Below are positions 14,957 through 27,860 of a stretch of DNA of 45,740 nt, in pieces. The position numbers and the translations under genes were made by a program. Within the stretch, counting starts at the first letter, position 1. Every line of letters starts with the position of its first letter. Source of the stretch: a virus (lineage: Duplodnaviria > Caudoviricetes). The notes below the pieces were generated by a model. The model was given only the letters and a program-made list of their open reading frames with translations. It did no database searches and was not told where the DNA came from. The stretch is taken from the IMG/VR virus record IMGVR_UViG_3300037046_000301, positions 1 through 45,740 of that record; one strand, given 5' to 3'.

Positions 14957-15001
14957 GTATATTATTAATATCAAATTTCTTTTTATTAATTACATTTATG
15001 T

Positions 15002-15009
15002 TAAATTTG
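15002..15009 (+). promoter_or_regulatory. Bacteroidota -7 promoter box TAAATTTG
   Basis: Matches TAnnTTTG, 21 nt before ATG 15031. Confidence 0.5.
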
Positions 15010-15030
15010 CTTGGTTCTTTTCCATTGTTT

Positions 15031-15909
15031 ATGAAGAAAATATATTTCCTTTTAATATTTATGCTTGGTTCAGTTTTTTCATTTTCCCAGAAAATAGAAA
15101 ATGTACATGTTGAACAACAGGGAAAACAAGTTGTAATAAATTATGATATTACAGGAGCGCAAGCAGAACAAACGTTTGAAGTAAGTCTGTTATATTCACA
15201 GAATGGTTATGATTGGAAACAGGCAACTAAAGGATTAACCGGAGACATAGGAACAATTGCCCATACAGTGATGAAAAATACCATAACATGGGATGCTTTG
15301 CAGGATGTTAATAAGCTTGTTGGAACAGGGTTTATGTTTAAAGTAAAGGTTAATGTAAATAGTAGAAATATTAATATCAGTTCTTTTAAAGATAGCAGGG
15401 ATAACAAAATCTACAAAACGGTAAAAATTGGGAATCAAACTTGGATGGCAGAAAATCTTAACTATAAAACAAGCAGTGGAAGTTGGTGTTATAATGATTT
15501 TAGTAGCAATTGCCAAACATACGGTAGGTTATACAATTGGGAAACAGCCAAAACGGTTTGTCCTGATGGCTGGCATTTGGCCTCAGATGATGAATGGACA
15601 GAATTGATTGATTTTCTCGGTGGGCCAAGAATAGCTGGAGGAAAGATGAAACAAAATGGTACAACTTTCTGGAAAACCCCTAATAAAGGTGAGAAAAATG
15701 GTAGCGGATTTTTAGCTTTACCTGGGGGTGATCGCGACTATAATGGTAAATTCGGCAATATGGGTTACCATGCAAGTTTTTGGTCTTCTACAGAGGATTA
15801 TTCCATTGGCGCCTGGCTCAGACTTTTGTACTATGATGACACAAATGTACTCCGCTACAGTTATAATCTGGACTTCGGTTATAGTGTTCGTTGCGTTAAG
15901 GATAAATAG
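15031..15909 (+). CDS. Secreted FISUMP (Fibrobacter succinogenes major paralogous) domain protein
   Basis: Signal peptide MKKIYFLL...; DSRDNKIYKTVKIGNQTWMAENLNY, YGRLYNWE, CPDGWHL, GYSVRCVKD. Confidence 0.88.
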   Translation: MKKIYFLLIFMLGSVFSFSQKIENVHVEQQGKQVVINYDITGAQAEQTFEVSLLYSQNGYDWKQATKGLTGDIGTIAHTVMKNTITWDALQDVNKLVGTGFMFKVKVNVNSRNINISSFKDSRDNKIYKTVKIGNQTWMAENLNYKTSSGSWCYNDFSSNCQTYGRLYNWETAKTVCPDGWHLASDDEWTELIDFLGGPRIAGGKMKQNGTTFWKTPNKGEKNGSGFLALPGGDRDYNGKFGNMGYHASFWSSTEDYSIGAWLRLLYYDDTNVLRYSYNLDFGYSVRCVKDK

Positions 15910-16084
15910 TCAAATATTTGACATTTCGTCAAAATGTTAAATGGTTAGTTATAATTACGTGCAAGAAAGAAAGGAGATAAGGATCTTTTATTCCGGGAAT
16001 AAAAGGATGCGGCAATCTTGTGACAACAAACGTTCTATTTATCTCAGCCTTTGTTCAAAATTTTTAAATAAATATTCAATTAAT

Positions 16085-17794
16085 ATGAGTTCAATGACAT
16101 CCATATCGACTAGACTAATTTTTAGTGTAGGATTTTGTATTTTACTATTTGTCATAAATAGCTATTCTCAAACTACGATTGAAGGAATAAGTAATAAAGT
16201 TGATTTAAATATAACCAAAGATCCTCCAGTACTATTGTTATCGGATGGATCATTAAAATTTACAGACCAGAATGGCAATAATTGCATTGATGCAAATGAA
16301 ATGGTTAAGATTTCTTTTGAAGTAGAGAACAGGGGTAAAGGAGAGGCTTCAGGATTAACTTTAAACGTAAGTGAAACAGGCAATATTGGTGGGTTGTCAT
16401 TCGGAAAAATAGCATCGAAAGGCAATCTTTCAACTAGCACTAAGAAAACAATTGAAATACCAATCACTGGTGATATGAATTTAAAAACAGGTGTTGCCAA
16501 TTTCGTCATCAAACTTGATGAGGAAGGTGGATTCGGTTTAGATGAGATGCAAATGGAAGTAAAAACAATGGCTTTTGTCAATCCGGTTGTTAAAATTCCC
16601 GATTATACTATTACAAGCGAGATCGGAAATACTCTTAATAGAAAGAAGCCTTTCGATCTTCAGATTTTGATTCAAAATGTTGGAAAAGGAATTGCAGAAA
16701 GTGTTAGAATTGATATGAGTATTCCACAGAACGTATTATGTTTCTCAGGGAATGAGACTACTCAATTTGATAAGATTATTTCAGGTGAAACGCAAACCAT
16801 AGTATACAGCTTAATCGTGAACGAGAGATATTTAGCAAGCAGTATTCCCGTTGAATTCAAACTCTCTGAAAAATATGGCAAATATGCCGAGAATAAAACT
16901 ATAACCCTTGAACTGAACCAAGCGATGGCAGCATCAAAATTGATAGTAGAGAGTTCGGTTATTGCTGATAATACACTTATTTCTGAAGCCTATCTTGGTT
17001 CTGATGTGGACAAAAATATCCCTTTCAACAGCATGGACAAACCCAACACTTATGCACTTATTATTGGAAATGAAGATTATTATTCTTTTCAGTCCGGACT
17101 AAGTAGAGAGATCAATGTGGACTATGCAATGAATGATGCCAGAACGATTAAGGAATATTGTAGTAAAACGCTTGGTATTCCAGATAAGCAGATCATGTTG
17201 CTTACAAATGCAACGACAGGAAAAATGAACCAGGGAATTACATGGCTTAGTAATCTTGCTAAAGTTGACAATGGCAAGGCAGAATTGATTTTCTATTACT
17301 CCGGTCATGGTTTACCTGATGAAGTTACTAAAGAAGCATACCTGATTCCGGTTGATGTCAGCGGAAGCAACCTTACAGAAGGTATTAAACTTGCTGATGT
17401 ATATAGCAAACTGAGCGAGTATCCAGCGCAGAAAGTAACCGTATTTTTAGATGCCTGTTTCAGTGGTGGCGCCCGTAATCAGGGATTGATTGCACAGAAA
17501 AGTGTTAAAATAAAACCAAAAGAAAACCTGATTACCGGCAATATGGTTGTGTTTACATCAAGTACAGGAGAAGAATCGTCCGGCGTTTACCGGGAGAAAC
17601 AGCACGGATATATGACTTACTATCTTCTGAAAAAACTACAGGAAACCAAAGGGGACATTACCTATGGGGAATTGGCAAACTATATTACCGATAAAGTTAC
17701 CAAGGAAACAGCATTAAGTGGAAAAACTCAAACACCGCAGGTGATTTATAGTTCAGCTATTGAAAATACTTGGACAAACTGGATGATAAAATAA
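16085..17794 (+). CDS. Secreted caspase-family (peptidase C14) protein with N-terminal Ig-like domains
   Basis: YALIIGNEDY, YYSGHG and DACFSG catalytic His/Cys motifs; start uncertain (ORF open from 15941). Confidence 0.85.
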   Translation: MSSMTSISTRLIFSVGFCILLFVINSYSQTTIEGISNKVDLNITKDPPVLLLSDGSLKFTDQNGNNCIDANEMVKISFEVENRGKGEASGLTLNVSETGNIGGLSFGKIASKGNLSTSTKKTIEIPITGDMNLKTGVANFVIKLDEEGGFGLDEMQMEVKTMAFVNPVVKIPDYTITSEIGNTLNRKKPFDLQILIQNVGKGIAESVRIDMSIPQNVLCFSGNETTQFDKIISGETQTIVYSLIVNERYLASSIPVEFKLSEKYGKYAENKTITLELNQAMAASKLIVESSVIADNTLISEAYLGSDVDKNIPFNSMDKPNTYALIIGNEDYYSFQSGLSREINVDYAMNDARTIKEYCSKTLGIPDKQIMLLTNATTGKMNQGITWLSNLAKVDNGKAELIFYYSGHGLPDEVTKEAYLIPVDVSGSNLTEGIKLADVYSKLSEYPAQKVTVFLDACFSGGARNQGLIAQKSVKIKPKENLITGNMVVFTSSTGEESSGVYREKQHGYMTYYLLKKLQETKGDITYGELANYITDKVTKETALSGKTQTPQVIYSSAIENTWTNWMIK

Positions 17795-17855
17795 TTTTTC
17801 AATTAAGAGAAGCTAAAGCTTTTCAATATCGTATGACACGAGTCGATAGAATGGC

Positions 17856-18791
17856 CTAAATTGAAATTGAAAATGGTAATGATTTAATATAGTTTTCCAT
17901 AAAATCAAAGTCTGGTTTGCCTGCGATATCAACAGGCAATTTTATTCTGGATTTATTCATCTTTCCAGTTTCCCATTTTCTGCCATAGTTAAACCGAAAT
18001 TTTTCTAACCGGATTAATGTTATTAGAAAGAATGCAATGTATTTGTTTAGTTTAAATTTTGAATATAGAACATTTACATCGTCACTTGCCCAGAAGGGAT
18101 TAGGTTGATAAAATGATTCCCCAACAGAACCATTATAATTCACAGTGATTGTATTGCCTTGATGTATTGGCTCTTGCCCAATAAAATCTCTATAACCATT
18201 ATTTGAATCTATTGCACCAATGAAGGGTGTGTTTCCAGGAATGAAATCTTCCTTTGTTAATCGTTTGCCCTTTTTTATGTCAAATAGTTCGTTGTAATTA
18301 AAGTATTTCCAATTACTAGTATTTAGATTAAGGGTTTTATTTTGTGCACTTTTTTTTGAAGGAATACTTGGTATTTGGATTTTTTCAACCCAAACAGGGA
18401 TTTCTGAAACACTTGGAATTAAAATATCTCCTAATGTTTTATTTGCTTGTCTACCGTAGCTATAACGATATTTGTTTGCTCGTATGCACAGACAATAAAA
18501 CAACTTTTGTTTTTCTGATAATTCTATTTTAGGGCGTAAACAAAATATATGATAGCTAGTATAAAAATCCGATGTCTGTAAAAAAGTTTCTAATACAGAC
18601 CCTCCAAGTGAAACAGTTATCAAGCCTGCTTTAAACGGCTCAACATCAATTAACTTTTCAACTTTTGCTGATACTCCGTTATTTTTGGCAGTTCGAGAAA
18701 TAAAATTTATACCTGTCTTATTTATAGACAATCTGTTTAGTTCAAATCCATTACCATAGGTAATGTCAAATATGTTTGACAATTTTTCCAT
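17856..18791 (-). CDS. Restriction-modification specificity (S) subunit, BcgI-beta-like
   Basis: Two repeated TRD halves (FISRTAKNNG..YSYGR; FIGAIDSNNG..FNYGR). Confidence 0.8.
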   Translation of the reverse strand: MEKLSNIFDITYGNGFELNRLSINKTGINFISRTAKNNGVSAKVEKLIDVEPFKAGLITVSLGGSVLETFLQTSDFYTSYHIFCLRPKIELSEKQKLFYCLCIRANKYRYSYGRQANKTLGDILIPSVSEIPVWVEKIQIPSIPSKKSAQNKTLNLNTSNWKYFNYNELFDIKKGKRLTKEDFIPGNTPFIGAIDSNNGYRDFIGQEPIHQGNTITVNYNGSVGESFYQPNPFWASDDVNVLYSKFKLNKYIAFFLITLIRLEKFRFNYGRKWETGKMNKSRIKLPVDIAGKPDFDFMENYIKSLPFSISI

Positions 18792-18793
18792 TT

Positions 18794-20605
18794 CTAATTA
18801 TTTAAAAATTGAAAAGCTATGTAGTTTTTGATGACATCAATAAAATTGTTTTCATTCATCTCCGAATAATCCGTTTCCATATATGCTTCAGCACACCATT
18901 CATCTTCAGCATTAACTTCTTTTATTACGCTATGACCTACAATTACTTCTTTGTTCAAATAAGCATTAACCCATTGCTTTTTTATCTCATGCCATTTTCC
19001 TTTTGCATCAATTCTGCCTTTGTTTTTAACTTTAACAAATCCATCGTCTTTCCAGTAACCAAACCAAGTTTTTTTACCTTTTGGATGTGGAATATGTGAA
19101 GTAAAAACCATTGTACAAGTAACAACCCCGACTTTTGAATTATGAAATAATTCGTCTGGCATTGACATAACAGCCTCTAAAGTATGATTTTCTAAAATTT
19201 TTGTTTTCCAACTTAGCATTTCTCCACTTTGTGCCAAAGCACAGCTCATTGGAACGATTGCAATGCACTTACCTTTCTTTTGAAGCATTTCAAGATTGTT
19301 CCATATAAAAGCAAACTCTTCTATATCTTCCTTCTTAATTGCATATGGAGGATTTAGTAAACCTACATTTGGTTTAAATTTATCTTTTATTTGTTTTGCT
19401 GTATCATCTTCAAAACAATCTCCAAGCATAATATTGCTTTTACCATCATTGTGAATAATCATATTAGATACAGCCAATGCGTAAATTTCATCTTGAAATT
19501 CAATACCGATAATTTGTTTCAATTTTATTTTATCAATTAGTTTCTTTTGACCATTCGCAAACGCAATCATTTTTTTCATTCCACTGATCAGGAAACCACA
19601 AGTTCCGCAGCAATTATCTAATAGGATACTGTCAACATTTAATTCAGCTAAATCGCAAAATAATTCTGTAATATGAGGGGGGGTTAGAACAATACCTAAT
19701 CCCTTATCATTATTAGCATACCTAAGAAACTCAATATAAAACTGTCCAAGCGTGTCAAAATATTTGTGCGTTTTTATAAATGAATTTACTTTTAAGTCAA
19801 TGTCAGAAATTAAATTTTCAAAAAAATGCTTGTTGGTTGTTAAAGTTGTATTTGAGTCAATAAAGGAATACGCTGTTTCCAATTTATTTATTTTGTCAAC
19901 AGGAATATTGGAATTTTTTAATTGCGTTTTAATTGTAAAAAAAATAGCTCCAGCCAAGTCTTTTGCTTTTATGTGTTTAGTGTAACTATTATGAAAAGCT
20001 ATATCTTGTAACGCAATCAAAATACCACTAATTAATAAACTTCTTTGAGATTCCTTTATCTTCTTTATGTGAAGAAGGTTGTTTAGTTCCTTTGTATAAG
20101 CCAATAAGTTTTCGTAATCCTGTTTGAATTTCCTCTCATCATTTATATATGCGTTGTAGTAATCATCAAAATTCAAAATCTTATTCTTGACGAATGAAAA
20201 TGGTTTATTGTCCTTTTTCAAATTCAAAAACTGAGAAATTCTAAACTCGGATATTTTTTCTCCACTAACTGCAATAGCAATTACATCATACTCTTTACTT
20301 AAAAAGGAAGCATATAATAATACTCCATCAACAGCATATTCAGAATACTTATCACGAGTTTTCGATTCGTGTTTTTTAAAGTCTGCTTTACATTCAATAA
20401 CAATAATAAGATCGCTGTATTTTTCTGACTGAATAATAAATTCCGGATATCCTTTGCTACCTCCTTTTTTAGATGCATTTTTTAATAGCTTATCAATTTT
20501 AGGATTATCGCATTGTTGTTCATAAACATTAACCCCTTTTTTATAATATCCGAGTTTGGTAAGTGTTTCCCGGACAATCTTTTCAGTTTTCCTTTCGTTC
20601 GCCAT
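18794..20605 (-). CDS. Fused endonuclease/N6-adenine methyltransferase (type IIB, BcgI-alpha-like)
   Basis: N-terminal YPEF..IECK nuclease motif; DNCCGTCGF motif I; NPPY motif IV. Confidence 0.85.
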   Translation of the reverse strand: MANERKTEKIVRETLTKLGYYKKGVNVYEQQCDNPKIDKLLKNASKKGGSKGYPEFIIQSEKYSDLIIVIECKADFKKHESKTRDKYSEYAVDGVLLYASFLSKEYDVIAIAVSGEKISEFRISQFLNLKKDNKPFSFVKNKILNFDDYYNAYINDERKFKQDYENLLAYTKELNNLLHIKKIKESQRSLLISGILIALQDIAFHNSYTKHIKAKDLAGAIFFTIKTQLKNSNIPVDKINKLETAYSFIDSNTTLTTNKHFFENLISDIDLKVNSFIKTHKYFDTLGQFYIEFLRYANNDKGLGIVLTPPHITELFCDLAELNVDSILLDNCCGTCGFLISGMKKMIAFANGQKKLIDKIKLKQIIGIEFQDEIYALAVSNMIIHNDGKSNIMLGDCFEDDTAKQIKDKFKPNVGLLNPPYAIKKEDIEEFAFIWNNLEMLQKKGKCIAIVPMSCALAQSGEMLSWKTKILENHTLEAVMSMPDELFHNSKVGVVTCTMVFTSHIPHPKGKKTWFGYWKDDGFVKVKNKGRIDAKGKWHEIKKQWVNAYLNKEVIVGHSVIKEVNAEDEWCAEAYMETDYSEMNENNFIDVIKNYIAFQFLNN

Positions 20606-20619
20606 AATGCAGGTAGTAT

Positions 20620-20943
20620 TTAAAAGTTAAAGCTTCCTTGCTTTATTTTTATTGATTTGTAATACTTTGCTTTTTCTTCTGCCAACTGAAATACTGTTTC
20701 AGGGCATTTGTATTTGTAACAATCTTCCGCAAATTTCTCGCTGAAGTATTGCTTCTTTATATCAGCGACATCAACTTTAAGCGCCTTGGCAAGTAGTTGT
20801 AATTTTTCTTCTTTCAATTCCTTTTTCCCATTTTCAACCTTACTTATGCCCCCACTGTCAAGCCCTATTTTAGCTGCAAGTTCAGTTTGATTTAGCCCCT
20901 TTTCAGTTCTAAGCCGCCGTATGTAATCTCCGAAACTTTCCAT
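20620..20943 (-). CDS. XRE-family HTH regulator (possible RM controller)
   Basis: FGDYIRRLRTEKGLNQTELAAKIG..ISKVENG; start at ATG 20943. Confidence 0.85.
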   Translation of the reverse strand: MESFGDYIRRLRTEKGLNQTELAAKIGLDSGGISKVENGKKELKEEKLQLLAKALKVDVADIKKQYFSEKFAEDCYKYKCPETVFQLAEEKAKYYKSIKIKQGSFNF

Positions 20944-21222
20944 TTTTAACCTTGTCAATTTAACCTTGGTAATTTTTGACAAATATAAATATTATTTTGA
21001 ATAGGGTGGTTGAAAATTTTTAGCTCCTTTTGGTCTCGGAGCAATCACCCGTGCGATGGTGCAACCAAATAAACGAAAAGCGATTCAAGTTAATTAATTG
21101 CTTACACAAGAGGTTGTACCAAGCAAATGTATAAATAAAATTTACTTATGGAGTTGAAAAATATATTATTATTGATATTTGATGAACAAAAAAAAGGGAG
21201 AGACCAGAGATTAGCTGATTTA

Positions 21223-22173
21223 TTATTGATATGTGAACCATTCTTTAATTAAGTTATTTTCATATTTTGTGAGCAAGACCTCTTTGTTTCGCTGTGCTCT
21301 TGATTTTGCATCGATTAAAATTTGTAAATAATTTGTATTTGTTCTATAAGCTCTATTAAAATTATTATTTTGAAATTCTTTCCACTTTCCATTTGTCTCA
21401 ATAATATATCTAATTTTTACATCTTGTGGAATTGTTTTAATTGTGCCATTGAGAAAATTAGCATTATTGTCTCTAATATAAGAGAATGATTTATTTAAAA
21501 GAGAATCAAAACAGAATGCAATTATTTTCGACTGTATAATAAAACTTTCTAAGTCTGTTAATAAAGAATCTGCGTTAGAATTATGAGCAGATTTATGTCT
21601 ATTGTTTGCAAAATTGCTAAAAATTTGGCTTGGATTTAATATTGAACAATTAATATTAGAACTTAGGGTTTGAATGCTATTCCAACCTCCATCAACATTA
21701 AATGTTTTTAAAAACTCTGAAATATCTGTAGAATTTAAGTTTGATTTATCCCAACCCATTGAAAATTCAGAAAACTCATAGACAGATTTCTTCGTGCTTG
21801 AAACGAATTCAGTTTCATTTTGAATAAATGTTATGTAATCTTCTGAATTCCTTTTTAATAATTCAGCTCTACTACTTATTCCTTTTAAAGCATAAAATGT
21901 TACAGCTTCTTTTAGCTTTTCTGGCAATGCATTAAAAGCACAACTTATCGAACTTATTTCTTTTAAGACTTCGCCAGTTCTTCTTTTTATGAAATCTTCA
22001 AGAATTGTAAATCCAATAATTGACATTCCATTTCTTAACATTCTAACTTTTTCGTTATGTAAGGTTTCAGTTAGTGCTTTGGAATTTAGTTTTATATCAT
22101 CTATATTTTCAGGATAGATAATACTACTGAATGTACTTATTCGTTCAATAAAAAAGTTCTTTGCAGTAGCCAT
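21223..22173 (-). CDS. HEPN-domain protein (putative RNase)
   Basis: Rx4H motif RHKSAH and N-terminal LEDFIK helix; coupled to DUF262 gene. Confidence 0.65.
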   Translation of the reverse strand: MATAKNFFIERISTFSSIIYPENIDDIKLNSKALTETLHNEKVRMLRNGMSIIGFTILEDFIKRRTGEVLKEISSISCAFNALPEKLKEAVTFYALKGISSRAELLKRNSEDYITFIQNETEFVSSTKKSVYEFSEFSMGWDKSNLNSTDISEFLKTFNVDGGWNSIQTLSSNINCSILNPSQIFSNFANNRHKSAHNSNADSLLTDLESFIIQSKIIAFCFDSLLNKSFSYIRDNNANFLNGTIKTIPQDVKIRYIIETNGKWKEFQNNNFNRAYRTNTNYLQILIDAKSRAQRNKEVLLTKYENNLIKEWFTYQ

Positions 22174-23240
22174 TATTTTAAGATTTCATCTAATAAATTA
22201 ATCATTGTCCCTATTCTATAATTTACTTGTTTAATATTTGAAGTAAATTGACGCATAGAAACTTGAAATTCCTTATCTTGAAAATACTGGTTTTCAAATT
22301 TGTCAGAAATTTGTTTTTTTCTTTCTATGATAATATTTGATTTGTCTAAAAAAAATGATAATCCAACTGTTTGAACATCAAAAATCCCTTGAATTATTTC
22401 ATTCCTTCCATCGGGTCTTTTAAATGCTCTATCTCCCCAAATTGTTTCACATAATTCAATAGTTTGATTGAACATATATTTGTATTTATCTATATTTAAA
22501 TCTTTACTACGATAATTCATTTCCATAAAATTATCCATAGCGATTTTCATATTACCATTGAAATTATTCCAAGTGTCTCTTAAAGTAAAAAATCGCAAGA
22601 CATATTCAACATCCAACATTTCTTTGTAAATTTTTGACTTTTCTCTTTCCCTTTCTGTTTCTAAATTAAATTGTTTTCTGAAAATGTTGTTTTCTGATAG
22701 CTCAACAAGTAAATCATTGAGTGTTCCTTCAAAAGAAGCATTTCTGATTTCTTGTGGTAATAATTTATCACCACCAGTGTTAAGCCTATTAAAAACTTCA
22801 TATTTTAATAAACTATCCGATTGTTTTAATAAAGTGATAACTCTTATATAAGGTCTAATTTTTAAAGCGTTATTTAATGGCGATGGAAGTTGTTGAAAAT
22901 TTAACCCTTCGATTTCAACAAACTTTTCTAAGTTTACTAGCCTCTCTTTAAGTATAATAAAATTATAAATTGCTGTTATTCTTTGTTTGCCATCAATAAC
23001 AGAATATGACCCATATTCGTCTTCTGCTAAATATATTGGTGGTACAGGAATATTCAATAGAAAAGATTCAATAAGAGCAGATTGTTTAACTTTATTCCAT
23101 CTTTCCCTTCTTTGATACTTTGGTTTAATGTTGATAGCCCCACCTTTAACCATATTTGCAATTGCTTCCAATGAAAGGTCGGAAGATTGGAATACCAGTC
23201 TGTTTTGTGCTAATAAAAATTTCTCAATAATGTTGTCCAT
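22173..23240 (-). CDS. DUF262 (GmrSD N-terminal/ParB-like) protein
   Basis: PKYQRRERW, LIESFLLNIPVPPIY, IDGKQR, FNRLNTGG motifs. Confidence 0.9.
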   Translation of the reverse strand: MDNIIEKFLLAQNRLVFQSSDLSLEAIANMVKGGAINIKPKYQRRERWNKVKQSALIESFLLNIPVPPIYLAEDEYGSYSVIDGKQRITAIYNFIILKERLVNLEKFVEIEGLNFQQLPSPLNNALKIRPYIRVITLLKQSDSLLKYEVFNRLNTGGDKLLPQEIRNASFEGTLNDLLVELSENNIFRKQFNLETEREREKSKIYKEMLDVEYVLRFFTLRDTWNNFNGNMKIAMDNFMEMNYRSKDLNIDKYKYMFNQTIELCETIWGDRAFKRPDGRNEIIQGIFDVQTVGLSFFLDKSNIIIERKKQISDKFENQYFQDKEFQVSMRQFTSNIKQVNYRIGTMINLLDEILK

Positions 23241-23510: not shown

Positions 23511-23544
23511 AAAAAGCCTCAATCGGTCGCAGACCGATTGAGGC
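23511..23544 (-). terminator. Intrinsic terminator
   Basis: GCCTCAATCGGTC stem followed by T-run on minus strand, after the 23561 stop. Confidence 0.85.
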
Positions 23545-23560: not shown

Positions 23561-23980
23561 TTAAAACTGAATCTTCGCTTCCGTTGAAGCCAATCCATCA
23601 TCAATGGAATTCTTCAATACATTGATGATCTTCTCAATGGCATCTGATTGAGAAGTTAAAAACTGGTTTCCTTCCTGATCCTGGATCGTGATTCGGGTGG
23701 TGTGTTCTTCCCGCTTCAGGTTGAAGGAAGCCAATTTCATCTTCGCTTCCAGGAAACGTTCCCGTTTTGCAATCAGATCGTTTAAATCCGAAACCTTCTG
23801 AATCTTCTGCTCGATGTTAAGCTCGGGCTTTTGTACTTCCGGCTTAACTTCGGGAAGGACTTCCGGTTTAACTTCAGGAACGACCGGATTCTCTTTGGTC
23901 GGTTTACGGTCAACAATTGCAAGGTCACGGCCGTTTTTTCCATTCTTTCCAACTGTTTTAACTTCTTTTACTTCATTCAT
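23561..23980 (-). CDS. Hypothetical protein with PEVK-like repeats
   Basis: 139 aa, VPEVKPEVLPEVKPEVQKPE; preceded by leader motif. Confidence 0.75.
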   Translation of the reverse strand: MNEVKEVKTVGKNGKNGRDLAIVDRKPTKENPVVPEVKPEVLPEVKPEVQKPELNIEQKIQKVSDLNDLIAKRERFLEAKMKLASFNLKREEHTTRITIQDQEGNQFLTSQSDAIEKIINVLKNSIDDGLASTEAKIQF

Positions 23981-23986
23981 TGTTTT

Positions 23987-24027
23987 TGCTGCTGCCTTGC
24001 AGACTTATTTTGGCATCAAGCTCGCCG
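23987..24027 (-). ncRNA. Pseudoknot leader motif copy A
   Basis: GGCG-AGCTTGA-TGCC-AAAATAAGT-CTGC-AAGGCA-GCAG-CA, 6 nt before ATG 23980. Confidence 0.75.
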
Positions 24028-24292
24028 GGTTAAAAAAATTTATGGCAATCCATTACCGGATTGAAAATTTTTGAACAAGCCTTCAGGTCAGGTTTTTGGA
24101 AGTTTTGATAAAATCTGAATGAACCCGGAGGGACTTCGGAGCTTTCTGATGGTTCTTGTTTTGCTTTAAGCGACGAAGTGGCTTAGAGAGAAATATTTTC
24201 AATGCAGGTACCTTTGCCCAGAAATTTGAGTAACCAAGTGGTAGGGGGTTTTCTTTGGTTCTTTCTTTTGTTAACAGATGAAAAGAAAGAAC
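24028..24292 (+). promoter_or_regulatory. Putative ssDNA (Frpo-like) promoter foldback 1
   Basis: Arms 24028-24081 pair with 24180-24235; TACCTTTG at 24209-24216; close repeat of 26462-26698. Confidence 0.65.
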
Positions 24293-24316
24293 ATTATCAT
24301 TCGGGCAGTTCCGAAC

Positions 24317-24343
24317 AAAAAAAGGGGGCTTTCGCCCCCTTTT
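24317..24343 (-). terminator. Intrinsic (possibly bidirectional) terminator
   Basis: AAAAAAAGGGGGC-TTTC-GCCCCCTTTT at radC stop. Confidence 0.8.
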
Positions 24344-24800
24344 ATGAAAGATTTCCTTCATCAGCGAAGGAATAGTAAGCCTCTGAACCGACAATCAGAT
24401 GATCAACGATTGGAAGATCCAGGAAGTCACCCGCTGCTTTCAATTTACGGGTGAGTTTAATGTCAGCATCTGAAGGTTGCAGATTTCCTGAAGGATGGTT
24501 ATGTAAAAGGATAATACTGCAAGCATTGCCCTTTAAGGCAACCTGGAAGATCATTTTAGGATCGGCAACCGTACCTGAAACCCCGCCTATTGAAACTGTG
24601 TGAAAGCCGAGCATTTTATTTGCCCGGCTTAATAAGAGCATGAGAAAAGATTCCCGGTAATCAATGGGTTCAGGCCAGATGCTCAATGCGATATCATAAG
24701 CATCGCGCGAAGAAGTGATCTTTCTCATTTCGCTGTGTCGCAGTTTCATTGAATACTGGACTTTGATTTCAGCGAAGGAATTATTGAATAAATTATTCAT
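24342..24800 (-). CDS. radC: RadC-like JAB domain protein
   Basis: E..LLLSRANK..SIGGVSGTVADP..HNHPSGNLQPSDAD..DHLIV; start set at ATG 24800 because the longer ORF runs through a terminator and another gene. Confidence 0.9.
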   Translation of the reverse strand: MNNLFNNSFAEIKVQYSMKLRHSEMRKITSSRDAYDIALSIWPEPIDYRESFLMLLLSRANKMLGFHTVSIGGVSGTVADPKMIFQVALKGNACSIILLHNHPSGNLQPSDADIKLTRKLKAAGDFLDLPIVDHLIVGSEAYYSFADEGNLS

Positions 24801-24806
24801 TATCTT

Positions 24807-24847
24807 TGCCCATGCCTTTGGGACTTTTAAAGGTTTCAAGCGCACCA
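24807..24847 (-). ncRNA. Pseudoknot leader motif copy D
   Basis: GGT-GCGCTTGAA-ACC-TTTAAAAGT-CCCA-AAGGCA-TGGG-CA, 6 nt before ATG 24800. Confidence 0.7.
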
Positions 24848-24861
24848 GGTTAATTAATTTG

Positions 24862-24895
24862 AAAAAAAAAAGCCCCCGATCCCTGGGGGCTTTTT
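24862..24895 (-). terminator. Intrinsic bidirectional terminator
   Basis: A-run, GCCCCC..GGGGGC stem, T-run. Confidence 0.8.
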
Positions 24896-24897
24896 GA

Positions 24898-25125
24898 TTA
24901 ATAAGGATTTCCGACTCCGTGAAAGGTATCTTCATCCGCTTTGTCTGAAAGAAACTGCCGAAAATCAGATTCACCGCAAGGGGAACAATAAGCCTTTTGA
25001 TTACTCGGCCAATAAAAAATGTCATCGCCTTTTTTGATCGGACAATGACATTGAGCGCAGGTACTGGTGAACTTAGCAGTGATCTGTCGTGGATCTCCTG
25101 CATAGGTGGTTGAATAGCGTCTCAT
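24898..25125 (-). CDS. Small zinc-finger-like protein
   Basis: 75 aa with CAQC and CSPC; ATGA overlap with upstream gene. Confidence 0.75.
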   Translation of the reverse strand: MRRYSTTYAGDPRQITAKFTSTCAQCHCPIKKGDDIFYWPSNQKAYCSPCGESDFRQFLSDKADEDTFHGVGNPY

Positions 25126-25499
25126 ACTGCGCTCCTTTCTGTGACTTGTTTGTCACTGAACAGGTAGCAAATCGGCCAGTATTTGTACTGATCTTCAGAT
25201 TCTGTCGGGGATTCATCGCCCATCTTGTCGGCACTTTCATCCAGCCGACTGACATCTTTGGGCGTACCCCAGACCAAAAAGGCTTTGCTGTCTTTTATGA
25301 TGGACTTTCCGAGTTTCTTCCATTCATGGAAGGTTTTAAACTCGGAATGACCGGCTTCTTTTCTGTAAAGCTCGATCAGTCCATCATTGACAGTGGAAGC
25401 ATGAATCTGTCCCATTTGCATGAGCAGTTTTACAGTGGCAGACAAACCCTTCAGCTTGTCGCGGTTCTCCAGGTAATGAGAAATTTTTGAATCATTCAT
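25122..25499 (-). CDS. ArdC N-terminal-like ssDNA-binding protein
   Basis: FKTFHEWKKLGKSIIKDSKAFLVWG..YLFSDKQV pattern typical of ArdC-N. Confidence 0.7.
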   Translation of the reverse strand: MNDSKISHYLENRDKLKGLSATVKLLMQMGQIHASTVNDGLIELYRKEAGHSEFKTFHEWKKLGKSIIKDSKAFLVWGTPKDVSRLDESADKMGDESPTESEDQYKYWPICYLFSDKQVTERSAV

Positions 25500-25505
25500 T
25501 TTAAA

Positions 25506-25546
25506 TGCTGCTGCCTTGCAGACTTATATTGGCCTCAAGCACGCCA
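25506..25546 (-). ncRNA. Pseudoknot leader motif copy B
   Basis: TGGC-GTGCTTGAG-GCCA-ATATAAGT-CTGC-AAGGCA-GCAG-CA, 6 nt before ATG 25499. Confidence 0.75.
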
Positions 25547-25562
25547 GGTTATAAAATTTCAA

Positions 25563-25892
25563 TTAAGCATTGACTGCAAGCTGGGAGTGGTATTCAAATT
25601 CCCAGTGAATGTGTTTTATCGGCTGTGATTGAAAAACTGTGATCCAGACTTCCTGAAGATAAAACTCAGAGCAGTCAGAATAAGGAACCAGTTTGGAAAA
25701 GCACCAACCAATTTTCCGGGGTGGTTTTCCGCTGGGTTGATCAATGTAAATTGAAGAAGCCTTTCCATAAGTTTTTTGAAGGCTTCGGAACAATTTTCCC
25801 AGGTCATTGGTGAATGTTTCGTATGCTTCCTGGTCAGCGAAGCGCCATCCTTTAGAAGCATTGACGAAAGATTCATGAATCCAGATATTCAT
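25563..25892 (-). CDS. Hypothetical protein
   Basis: Start moved to ATG 25892 (MNIWIHES), after leader motif. Confidence 0.7.
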   Translation of the reverse strand: MNIWIHESFVNASKGWRFADQEAYETFTNDLGKLFRSLQKTYGKASSIYIDQPSGKPPRKIGWCFSKLVPYSDCSEFYLQEVWITVFQSQPIKHIHWEFEYHSQLAVNA

Positions 25893-25900
25893 AAAAAAAG

Positions 25901-25941
25901 TGCCCATGCCTTTGGGACTTGTTTTGGCAACAGGCACGCCA
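25901..25941 (-). ncRNA. Pseudoknot leader motif copy C
   Basis: TGGCG-TGCCTGT-TGCCA-AAACAAGT-CCCA-AAGGCA-TGGG-CA, 8 nt before ATG 25892. Confidence 0.75.
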
Positions 25942-25950
25942 GTGAATTAA

Positions 25951-26361
25951 TTAATCTTCGTTTGGAAACAGGATGGTAATTGCCGGTGATGGATCATCAA
26001 TGTCAACCGGACCAACCAGGGCTTTTAAGGTAATGAGCCGTTGAAATTCCCCTTCTTCTGAATGCTCATTATCGAGCCAGGGCTCTTCTTTCGACAATTG
26101 ACAGATGAATTTGAAAAGCAATTCAGCGCCTGGTGTTTTCCTTGCGCTGACTGCAAACATCCAGAGGATATCCCAGAGCCGTCCGGCTTCATCCTGGTAC
26201 CCGGTCATTTCTTTGGGAACTTCAACATAGCGATCCCAAACTGTCCGATTCATGTAAACCGGATAGCGGATACCAGCGGATCGGCTTGTTTTCTGATCAA
26301 TTTCAACCTGGAAGCCATCAGAAATAGCATCCTTTCGTGTGTAAGCATAAATAAGGTCCAT
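25951..26361 (-). CDS. DUF6573-like protein
   Basis: IYAYTRKDAISDG..QDEAGRLWDILWM..ITILFPNED pattern. Confidence 0.6.
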   Translation of the reverse strand: MDLIYAYTRKDAISDGFQVEIDQKTSRSAGIRYPVYMNRTVWDRYVEVPKEMTGYQDEAGRLWDILWMFAVSARKTPGAELLFKFICQLSKEEPWLDNEHSEEGEFQRLITLKALVGPVDIDDPSPAITILFPNED

Positions 26362-26367
26362 TGAAAA

Positions 26368-26430
26368 TGCCGCTGCCCTGCGGACTTATTTTGGCTTCCT
26401 GAAGTTTATTCAGAAATTGTCTGGCACGCC
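26368..26430 (-). ncRNA. Pseudoknot leader motif copy E (extra hairpin in loop 1)
   Basis: GGC-GTGCCAGA-[TTTCTGAA TAAAC TTCAGGAA]-GCC-AAAATAAGT-CCGC-AGGGCA-GCGG-CA, 6 nt before ATG 26361. Confidence 0.75.
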
Positions 26431-26435
26431 GATTA

Positions 26436-26698
26436 TTACTGCAATTTTTGCTTCGGAACAATACCGGATTGAAAATTTTCGAACAAGCCTTCAGGTCAGA
26501 TTTTTGGCAGTTTTGATAAAATGTGAATGAACCCGGAGGGACTGAGCCGCTTTCAGATAATTCCCTTCCGCTTTAAGCGGTGAAGTGGCTTAGAGAGAAA
26601 TAGTTTCAATGCAGGTAACTTTGCTAAAAATTGTAGTAAGTAGTGTGGGGTGGGTTTTCTTTGGTTCTTTCTTTTGTTGACGGATGAAAAGAAAGAAC
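26436..26698 (+). promoter_or_regulatory. Putative ssDNA (Frpo-like) promoter foldback 2
   Basis: TTACTGCAATTTTTGC (26436-26451) pairs with GCTAAAAATTGTAGTAA (26623-26639); TAACTTTG at 26616-26623 lies opposite a mismatch bubble. Confidence 0.65.
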
Positions 26699-26792
26699 GA
26701 CAATCCATCAAGCGGAGCTTGATACCAGGCGGTATAGCTGAAGTATCATTCCCTTCGGGGAATGATGAAGTATTTTTCTGACCTGTACGAAC

Positions 26793-26826
26793 AAAAAAAG
26801 GGAAGCCGGCGTCAGCCGGCTTCCCT
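26793..26826 (-). terminator. Intrinsic terminator
   Basis: AGGGAAGCCGGC stem followed by T7 on minus strand. Confidence 0.85.
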
Positions 26827-26844
26827 ATGCTTCGTATCAGCATC

Positions 26845-27342
26845 TTAGAATGGAGCTTCTTCGAAGGGATTACTGAACAATTCAGCTTCTTTTGGTCTTT
26901 CAGGTTCAGGAATACCTGCTTCCCTGCGCCTTCTTTTGAAGTTTGAATTAGGGTAAGGATCCTTTGCAGTTTCATTTGCCTGGGAAACTTCAACAGCAGG
27001 AATTTCTTCCTTTGATTTGCTTACCTGATTATTCGAGTACAGGTAGATGACAGGAAAAAACTTTTTCTGATTTCCGTCAGCACCTGTGGACATGGTGGGT
27101 TTGCCCCAGAACAGGTAAGCCTTTGCTTTGGCCTTTACTGTGAATCCTTCCTCTTTCCACTGACGGGCTGACTTAAACTCGACATTTTCTTTTCCATTCG
27201 AGTAAGTCGACATTAAAGCGGCTTTCATGTTTTGAAAACTTCCTTTAGCTATTTCAGGTTTCAAAATCTTCGAAAGCTCGGAAAGTTTTTTAACGTTTTC
27301 AGGGTGAGAAGCTAATTCAGGACGAAATTTTGTTGTATTCAT
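26845..27342 (-). CDS. ArdC N-terminal-like ssDNA-binding protein with acidic PF tail
   Basis: FKSARQWKEEGFTVKAKAKAYLFWGKP..YLYSNNQV; ends FEEAPF. Confidence 0.7.
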   Translation of the reverse strand: MNTTKFRPELASHPENVKKLSELSKILKPEIAKGSFQNMKAALMSTYSNGKENVEFKSARQWKEEGFTVKAKAKAYLFWGKPTMSTGADGNQKKFFPVIYLYSNNQVSKSKEEIPAVEVSQANETAKDPYPNSNFKRRRREAGIPEPERPKEAELFSNPFEEAPF

Positions 27343-27348
27343 TTTATA

Positions 27349-27391
27349 CGCCGGTGGCTCGCCGGACTTTTTTTAGGTATTAGCCACACCA
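27349..27391 (-). ncRNA. Pseudoknot leader motif copy F
   Basis: GGTG-TGGCTAA-TACC-TAAAAAAAGT-CCGG-CGAGCCA-CCGG-CG, 6 nt before ATG 27342; compensatory changes in all three helices. Confidence 0.75.
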
Positions 27392-27405
27392 GTTAAAATG
27401 TTTAA

Positions 27406-27537
27406 TTAATTTGAATAATTTTCTGAAAATTGATTAAATTCAAAATTGAGAGATTCGGCATCAAGCGAATCAGCGTAACCCGGATAAAAAACTTCATCCA
27501 GGAAAGCAATAAAAATTTCATATAAGGAAGAATTCAT
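27406..27537 (-). CDS. Small acidic protein (43 aa, not in ORF track)
   Basis: MNSSLYEIFIAFLDEVFYPGYADSLDAESLNFEFNQFSENYSN; ATG 6 nt after leader motif. Confidence 0.7.
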   Translation of the reverse strand: MNSSLYEIFIAFLDEVFYPGYADSLDAESLNFEFNQFSENYSN

Positions 27538-27543
27538 TGTGTG

Positions 27544-27584
27544 TGCCGCTGCCCTGCGGACTTATATCAGCGTCTGGCTCGCCA
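27544..27584 (-). ncRNA. Pseudoknot leader motif copy G
   Basis: TGGCG-AGCCAGA-CGCTG-ATATAAGT-CCGC-AGGGCA-GCGG-CA, 6 nt before ATG 27537. Confidence 0.75.
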
Positions 27585-27860
27585 GTTAATTAAATTTTTG
27601 CTGATAAATGCGAAAAGGCATTGAGCAGACCCGATTCATGTCAAGTATTAGGGTCATCCCGCATTTGCGGGATGAAAGAACCCAACGGGCGCTCAGTACT
27701 GAAACCCATCCTATAAATGATCAAAGGTTTCAGGACTGAGCGTACTTTACTTTTCGGGGATGCGTAAATAACTTTGCAAATAATTTGAGTAACTAACGGT
27801 GGGCTGGTTTTCTTTTTTGCTTCTTTATTCTTTGGGCAATCATGAAAAGAAAAAAGAAGC
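27584..27860 (+). promoter_or_regulatory. Putative ssDNA (Frpo-like) promoter foldback 3 (divergent interior)
   Basis: 27584-27601 pairs with 27776-27794; TAACTTTG at 27769-27776; internal hairpins 27654-27674 and 27690-27742; similar trailing TTCTTT/AAAGAA hairpin. Confidence 0.55.

Follow-up and report, generated by a model that had tools for sequence, protein, structure and literature searches.

Structured RNA is known to act at translation initiation in several settings. Pseudoknots in messenger RNAs dock on the platform of the 30S ribosomal subunit (PMC3858243), a pseudoknot has been described that is needed for binding of 30S and S1 (PMC7708055), and the protein Aca2 binds two hairpins and blocks translation (PMC13551039). 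At the DNA level, the Frpo/ssi elements are fold-back structures that carry promoter boxes ahead of the anti-defence genes of conjugative elements (PMC11541004). The ribosomes of Bacteroidia have a buried anti-Shine-Dalgarno sequence (PMC9976891). How start sites are chosen and strengthened in Bacteroidota without Shine-Dalgarno (SD) pairing is an open question. The element described here bears on that question and touches a second one, how incoming DNA outruns host defences. It is a kissing-loop pseudoknot that occurs in seven copies between positions 23,987 and 27,584 of the viral record IMGVR_UViG_3300037046_000301 (Duplodnaviria; Caudoviricetes), whose 45,740 nucleotides are referred to as the window. 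Judged from sequence comparison, the motif is a real, uncatalogued and unusually well-supported RNA pseudoknot, found in mobile elements of Bacteroidales, whose fold and position are its own. It suggests that ribosomes are loaded or controlled by an unrecognised route in a phylum that makes no use of the textbook ribosome-binding signal. Among known families it comes closest to the orphan DUF805/DUF805b clan (CL00115), a resemblance that had been missed in the first-pass annotation of the window.

Fold and covariation of the motif

A structural descriptor matched the window seven times and no more, each time on the minus strand and at a site given in the first-pass annotation; 100 dinucleotide shuffles gave a mean of 0.03 and a maximum of one copy per window. 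A covariance model gave the same seven and nothing else in the window, in agreement with the claim that no copy lies outside a single gene island. The family now comprises 315 distinct 40-mers (effective number 97) from Bacteroidales proviruses, conjugative transposons and gut phages; these were drawn from the scans and picked for having an ATG and mostly paired stems, and their frequencies are not natural ones. Covariation across this set gives a fold that starts with a 3-bp helix (P1) around loop 1, which has 9 nt and can take up an extra hairpin. An A-rich linker leads to a second helix (P2), made up of one pair, a bulged pyrimidine and four pairs, which closes a 6-nt loop 2; the loops kiss through three pairs and then an A.G or U-A pair. 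The seven column pairs with the best corrected mutual information are all pairs of this model (33/42, 34/41, 32/43, 29/45, 9/19, 12/39 and 15/36), and the four strongest signals belong to P2. The covariation of P1 and P2 that had been claimed is borne out both in the window copies and across the relatives, and a P2-closing extra pair, formed by the G of AAGT and the C of CA across the bulged U or C (29/45), can be added to the earlier description. In a first alignment of 80 rows pairing was 99-100% in the stems and 62% over a six-pair kiss.

Within the kiss, 12/39 is G-C in 272 rows and A-U in 42, 13/38 is C-G in 313 of the 315, and 14/37 is C-G in 274 and U.G in 41, while 11/40 is U-A in 146/315 and 15/36 is mostly A.G. 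The complementary five-pair loops proposed earlier are therefore upheld for these three pairs (12/39, 13/38 and 14/37); five pairs occur in only three of the seven window copies (four in three, three in one) and not across the 315 relatives. To avoid circularity, single columns of alignment A1 were forced off consensus and their partners were left free. With column 29 forced to be other than G, A29-U45 was found in 68 of 69 cases; with column 12 treated in the same way, 40 of 42 distinct rows had A12-U39 with an ATG at 5-7 nt, and the other two were chance-like. The A12-U39 rows come mostly from one gut-phage lineage, with one independent case before radC in a bacterial genome. Column 13 is nearly fixed, with three compensated cases (window copy 2, L397 and L444) and one uncompensated. 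A viral scan with this column forced to be other than C gave 12 loci (nine distinct rows), none a convincing motif, a metagenome scan for the fully specified G13-C38 variant gave none, and a looser metagenome scan gave six loci, consisting of one compensated U13-A38, one uncompensated G13.G38 and four chance-like cases. After these scans the 13/38 pair rests on the three compensated cases. There were no matches when column 14 was forced to be a purine.

G.U wobbles outnumber A.C mismatches in P2 by 28 to 8, which argues that it is the sense strand that folds. Nested folding is no more stable than that of shuffled sequences (z -1.3 to +1.5), so tertiary contacts or a partner would have to hold the knot. 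Many loop and linker bases are near-invariant, and loop 1 carries an extra hairpin in 25 of 247 motifs. No alternative pairing was found among the top 12 covarying column pairs and none was seen with the spacer, whose mean unpaired probability is 0.70. A separate observation concerns L347, L350 and L351, where a different conserved sequence with a P2-like paired stem and no ATG matched a scan for 7-nt loops six times.

Start codons, gene context and possible function

The distance from motif to start codon is sharply set. Of 274 distinct sites, 258 have a spacer of 6-8 nt (132 with 6, 102 with 7 and 24 with 8); it is 0 nt in two, 5 nt in one and 9-12 nt in four, and a qualifying ATG is absent in nine. 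When the 29/45 pair is counted, 7-9 unpaired bases lie between helix and AUG, and 7-9 nt is the range of SD-to-AUG spacing. P2 covers positions -9 to -24, within the ribosome footprint. SD-like 4-mers occur at only 9 of 261 motif sites. An A at -12 is present in 57% of 228 control genes versus 10% of motif genes, and among 41 homologues of a gene for a four-cysteine protein, 10 are without the motif, seven of which have an A-rich leader instead (as judged by eye). These two observations indicate that the motif takes the place of the ordinary A-rich start signal.

A first family pattern, in which neither the ATG nor the three inner P2 pairs were required, matched at least 117 viral and at least 132 genome stretches; in the 191 distinct matches listed, P2 has four Watson-Crick pairs in 164 and an ATG lies 6-8 nt downstream in 181. 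Bacteroidota, mainly Prolixibacteraceae and other Bacteroidales, account for 76 of the 80 titled genome rows among the matches listed, and the remaining four (three of them contigs of bins) may be misbinned; one of these has 44% G+C and a RadC that resembles those of Bacteroidales. The spread is patchy: with the centre genome counted in each time, the motif occurs in 12 of 401 genomes from the order and in 11 of 41 from one family. A covariance-model search of a phylum sample, in which just 39 candidates were scored for each genome, gave two weak matches among 150 other genomes. The motif was not matched in cultured phages, where the gut-phage locus matched one unannotated record, and sequencing runs gave shares under 0.1 from contigs only, with no start, strand or level obtained.

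In complete chromosomes the copies are clustered, with up to 15 together. Two clusters lie amid conjugative-transposon genes (relaxase, coupling protein, TraG, TraM) and one in a provirus like that of the window; in one element radC and its motif are oriented toward the relaxase genes, as leading-region genes would be. Gut phages of 150 kb have a single copy about 20 nt behind an ordinary -7 box. The 276 distinct proteins encoded downstream of the motif fall into 43 clusters, and Pfam families were assigned at E<=0.001 to nine of the 43 representatives, including ArdC, RadC, DUF6573, a SLOG domain and a J-like domain. An upstream stop codon lies no more than 40 nt before the motif at 57 of 177 dereplicated sites. 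Since the motif precedes so many clusters and follows a nearby stop so often, each cistron appears to have its own copy, and the motif is found both first in transcripts and inside operons. Its commonest neighbour is the four-cysteine protein (34 of 160 loci), a candidate anti-defence protein whose family is large and unnamed, with 53-408 members in its Atlas clusters. Group II intron reverse transcriptases sit antisense within two motif clusters of genome G002 (L372:4659-6386 and L375:10588-12315). In the gut phage G005 the canonical promoter and single motif copy are followed by a conserved gene for a 176-aa protein (L378:9688-10254) that has no family and no fold match. A RegA-like repressor was considered for this protein on an Atlas score of 0.78 and rejected (predicted local distance difference test score 73, best Z 3.7, no viral match below E 0.4).

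Farther upstream, many of the sites share a second feature, which the first-pass annotation had not remarked on. A reversed -7 box lies 95-225 nt before the motif at 80 of the 177 sites, where 10.1 were expected, and the forward box is at chance (7 versus 6.9). In 43 of 71 template-strand folds, where 6.75 were expected, the reversed box is paired to a zone 8-40 nt upstream of the motif, which is also where the forward box lies in the gut phages. Of the two strands, the template strand forms the more stable fold in 55 of 71 cases (uncorrected for strand composition). The long leaders are thus candidates for a single-stranded DNA (ssDNA) promoter layout of the Frpo type; as double-stranded DNA, the -7 boxes of the three leaders in the window would fire the opposite way.

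The first-pass annotation had described a sense-strand RNA structure tied to the start codons of arrival-phase genes in Bacteroidota mobile elements, which stands, and had not chosen between an enhancer, a riboswitch and an operator; the data presented here favour initiation and lean toward a docking enhancer. It is very likely that the motif acts at translation initiation. The best reading, to which we would give a probability of roughly 45%, is that it is a ribosome-docking initiation element sitting where the SD helix would. In this reading a portable mRNA element would set translation initiation gene by gene: the knot would stay folded during 30S binding, would occupy the mRNA exit and platform in place of the SD helix and, once docked, would fix the AUG in the P site. 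Its partner would be a host component, either the 30S platform proteins or bS1. The outcome for an incoming element would be fast, SD-free translation of establishment and anti-restriction genes from the first transcripts, many of which would come from fold-back ssDNA promoters. More tentatively, the motif may be a natural, portable bacterial RNA for ribosome docking: on the ribosomes of Bacteroidia the closing helix of the 40-nt kissing-loop would take the place of the SD helix, and phages and conjugative elements would combine the motif with ssDNA promoters into an arrival cassette that gives immediate anti-defence expression.

Docking is favoured because the spacing is limited on both sides, each cistron has one copy, the motif is interchanged with A-rich leaders and no shared element protein was found among the motif's neighbours. 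A mere blocker would tolerate shorter spacers and a structure that had only to stay out of the way would tolerate longer ones, so the two-sided bound points to docking. In the single-copy gut phage G005, the motif's own gene apart, no protein found behind the motif elsewhere and no protein of the window was detected. Several points weigh on the other side. P2 covers exactly -12/-13, which equally fits an OFF state, and initiation in Bacteroidia prefers low structure and an A at -12/-13 (PMC9976891). The near-invariant loop and linker bases, together with the unremarkable nested stability, are as in ligand-binding aptamers, and DUF805b lies about 21 nt from the AUG, which means that a core of similar design is able to function away from the SD position. 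Aca2 represses anti-defence genes through two hairpins in the 5' untranslated region (UTR) (PMC13551039). The comparison for a shared partner covered motif-adjacent proteins only. The support for docking comes from sequence and context, and the sign assigned to the effect is tentative.

The position of P2 inside the ribosome footprint would also serve a translational operator, in which a protein (element-encoded, Aca-like or from the host) would bind the knot, block 30S loading and silence the arrival genes after establishment. One copy per gene would suit such a regulon and Aca2 offers a precedent on anti-defence operons, but the motif is near-identical across integrative and conjugative elements, proviruses and gut phages, whereas Aca motifs track the lineage of the protein (PMC13551039). 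The commonest neighbour is a poor candidate for the binding protein: tried as a universal repressor, the four-cysteine protein was rejected, as it was not found with the query used in four of five motif-bearing genomes and Atlas gave only unnamed clusters. The helix-turn-helix (HTH) protein of the window matched none of 160 loci. An operator also leaves the sharp lower limit of the spacer without explanation, and we consider it unlikely. Somewhat less likely again is a riboswitch, in which translation would be toggled by a small molecule or ion, such as a stress or immune signal, bound in a pocket made by the kiss and the bulged P2. A compact pseudoknot adjoining the AUG, with many near-invariant unpaired bases and a stability that is marginal without tertiary contacts, is what such a switch might look like; however, the 43 clusters have no metabolic theme, no alternative pairing was seen among the top 12 column pairs or with the spacer, and the motif stands before every gene of an operon, which is unusual for riboswitches.

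The placing of copies at cistron boundaries (57/177), near 5' ends behind promoters and, in the case of window copy 6, after a terminator-like hairpin would agree with an element of mRNA processing or stability: a nuclease block, a cleavage signal or a small ribozyme by which polycistronic RNA would be cut into protected messages for single genes. Such a role is improbable, since it does not account for an AUG distance only 3 nt wide and no Rfam ribozyme family was matched. The modules in which the motif is found, with their ssDNA-type hairpins and shuffled gene order, raise the prospect of a DNA-level element that is part of an ssDNA promoter, a primase site or a cassette recombination site. 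We give this very little credence: the wobble bias points to the sense strand while the promoter hairpins point to the template strand, the motif also stands behind an ordinary promoter in the gut phages, and it is tied to the AUG.

As an object of study the motif offers a small, well-resolved structure that obeys a sharp spacing rule, has a natural point of insertion in loop 1 and comes in hundreds of natural variants with ready compensatory pairs. Should it prove to be an enhancer, Bacteroidota would gain a new expression part; an operator or a riboswitch would instead mark out a regulon whose arrival genes, mostly unknown, are good candidates for anti-defence functions.

The motif island of the provirus

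The 45.7-kb window is a complete provirus record with tape-measure, head-protease and tail genes, and a Por secretion tail and the distribution of the motif point to a host among the Bacteroidota. The island is made up of eight minus-strand genes, including those for RadC, a DUF6573 protein and a weak ArdC-N match, and is flanked on one side by a 558-aa open reading frame (ORF) without a known family and on the other by a GmrSD/type I restriction cluster. Cargo lies amid structural genes at 14998-23240 (Fib_succ_major, a caspase-like peptidase, type I restriction S and M, an XRE HTH protein and GmrSD), and the defence genes of the window adjoin a putative anti-defence island. As had been described, six copies have a spacer of 6 nt and the remaining one a spacer of 8 nt; the ending CA holds in the other copies, while the copy at 27390 ends in CG and has a loop 2 of 7 nt.

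All of the genes, motif copies and terminator-like hairpins (the latter identified by eye) are on the minus strand, and three units each open with a related leader of 220 nt. The leader of unit 1 (27584..27800, ends approximate) is a candidate ssDNA promoter with a -7 box on the plus strand at 27769-27776 that pairs, in the template-strand fold, just upstream of copy 1. That copy (27544..27583; 62 bits) is 6 nt from the ATG at 27537 of the first gene, a 43-aa acidic ORF (27406..27537) that belongs to no family and whose relatives elsewhere are also behind the motif. Copy 2 (27349..27390; 23.4 bits), 18 nt after the upstream stop and with a spacer of 6 nt, has the swapped kiss pair G13-C38 and precedes a 165-aa ORF (26845..27342); this has no Pfam match, and tblastn led to the same locus as for the ArdC-N-like ORF. 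The unit ends in a terminator-like hairpin with a U run (26792..26825).

Unit 2 has its leader at 26431..26660 (ends approximate), with a plus-strand -7 box at 26616-26623 that pairs 19-32 nt upstream of copy 3, and the minus strand of 26431-26800, folded as DNA, has a z of -4.9. Copy 3 (26368..26430; spacer 6 nt), which has the inserted 8-bp hairpin in loop 1 that had been reported, serves the first gene, for a DUF6573 protein of 136 aa (25951..26361; E 2e-19). It is followed by copy 4 (25901..25940; 10 nt after the upstream stop, spacer 8 nt) with a 109-aa ORF of no family (25563..25892), and by copy 5 (25506..25545; 17 nt after the stop, spacer 6 nt) with a 125-aa ORF (25122..25499) whose weak match to the ArdC N terminus (E 0.0013) is under the Pfam cut-off. 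The 75-aa four-cysteine protein is encoded next (24898..25125) by what is, as previously noted, the only island gene without the motif, joined to its neighbour by an ATGA overlap; its homologues elsewhere usually have the motif. Besides the overlap, an SD-like AAGGAG lies 6 nt before its ATG (25126-25140), and GGAGG precedes two motif-less four-cysteine homologues (L195 and L066), though Bacteroidia are reportedly without SD use.

A terminator-like hairpin with an A run before it and a U run after it (24862..24895) lies between the four-cysteine gene and copy 6 (24807..24846; spacer 6 nt). It cuts radC and its motif off from the unit upstream, and as no obvious promoter lies in the gap, radC of the window may depend on read-through. 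The gene encodes a RadC-like JAB protein of 152 aa (24342..24800; E 6e-37) and is followed by another terminator-like hairpin (24317..24340). Unit 3 opens with a leader at 24027..24250 (ends approximate) that is 89-93% identical to that of unit 2 over two blocks; its plus-strand -7 box at 24209-24216 pairs 19-28 nt upstream of copy 7 (23987..24026; spacer 6 nt). The first gene is a 139-aa ORF of no credible family (23561..23980), and a terminator-like hairpin follows (23511..23544).

Relation to described systems

Searches of Rfam, including its radC, Pedo-repair and DUF2693 motifs as had been advised, gave no match on the window motif; nor was there one at the gathering score in 20 related loci or at E<=1 in six variant loci. 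Three weak matches of leader type (E 0.15-6.8) overlap copy 6 by way of the neighbouring terminator hairpin, on the other strand. Pedo-repair (RF01715) and the radC motif (RF01754) are associated with radC-type genes. Pedo-repair and the GUCCY-hairpin have been listed for Bacteroidetes, and both are unlike the motif, the former being about 210 nt long and the latter, which is outside Rfam, a single 35-nt hairpin (PMC2864571). Membership of all three was rejected: there is no Rfam match, and the alignment rows of Pedo-repair and GUCCY given in that source differ from the motif. The Pedo-repair rows in the same source hold a word like the -7 box in a long hairpin, which may be a fold-back promoter rather than an RNA. 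A literature search that left outside it the alignments of PMC5737381, PMC8040213 (in part) and PMC10690425 found no description of the motif, and motif strings were not found in the searchable supplements of RNA-motif surveys. DNAVirus_2749 of Fremin et al. (2023), a 41-nt motif with three covarying bases that in all 12 of its sequences precedes an ArdC gene at a distance of no more than 25 bp, could be the same motif; the comparison is with its description in a table only, in which all 12 sequences are from the human gut and no host is given (PMC10690425). A scan of viral contigs for ArdC genes in this connection confirmed nothing.

The hairpins in the 5' UTRs of the Aca2 and Aca1 systems resemble the motif in being structured RNA before the anti-defence genes of mobile elements. 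In contrast to the motif there is one per operon with a co-encoded HTH protein, the Aca1 motif ends about 20 nt before the AUG, and no pseudoknot is described for them (PMC13551039). At initiation on E. coli rpsO and tisB a pseudoknot is bound by the 30S platform or by S1, as is proposed here, but these pseudoknots belong to single-gene, SD-containing messages and are not portable repeats; that of rpsO must unfold and that of tisB acts about 100 nt away (PMC3858243, PMC7708055). The Frpo/ssi elements have sigma-70 boxes where the leaders described here have the Bacteroidota -7 box, and the leaders are also found here in a tailed provirus, while the word 'Bacteroid' is absent from the paper on Frpo/ssi (PMC11541004).

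The DUF805 clan comes closest. DUF805b (RF02914) is a Bacteroidota cis element found before the start codons of unrelated genes, as is the motif (76 of 80 titled rows among the matches listed; 43 clusters). It has a hairpin with a GCC-type loop triplet, an A-rich linker ending in AGU and, in the consensus, a GGC-A able to pair with the loop; in the motif, too, the hairpin-loop triplet pairs with a downstream triplet containing GG. DUF805b differs in having no P2, so that its 3' pairing strand is free (H-type), whereas in the motif the same strand is the loop of a strongly covarying hairpin. This strand lies 15-29 nt from the ATG in 28 of 33 DUF805b loci (median 21; one locus mis-extracted) and 12-14 nt from it in the motif, and loop 1 has 12 nt in DUF805b versus 9 in the motif. 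The two occupy different places in the same genomes, and neither model scores the other: against a gathering score of 35.6 bits the best DUF805b score in the window is 8.2 bits and is not on a motif copy, with none in the loci of the 20 and six relatives, and the best comparison of the motif model with DUF805b over 26 loci is 9.6 bits. Membership of DUF805b was rejected on the score below gathering, the presence of P2 and the other distance to the ATG. At L424, 10 nt upstream of a DUF805b copy match the end of loop 1 and P1 of the motif, a hint of intermediates between the families. DUF805 (RF03081) has a 5' hairpin loop that by eye resembles loop 1 of the motif, but it consists of two hairpins and then a free tail over 68 positions, and with a gathering score of 51.1 bits and no match in the window at E<=1, membership of it was also rejected. 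Although a member of neither family, the motif may work like the DUF805 clan and share stock with it, and it may also explain that orphan clan.

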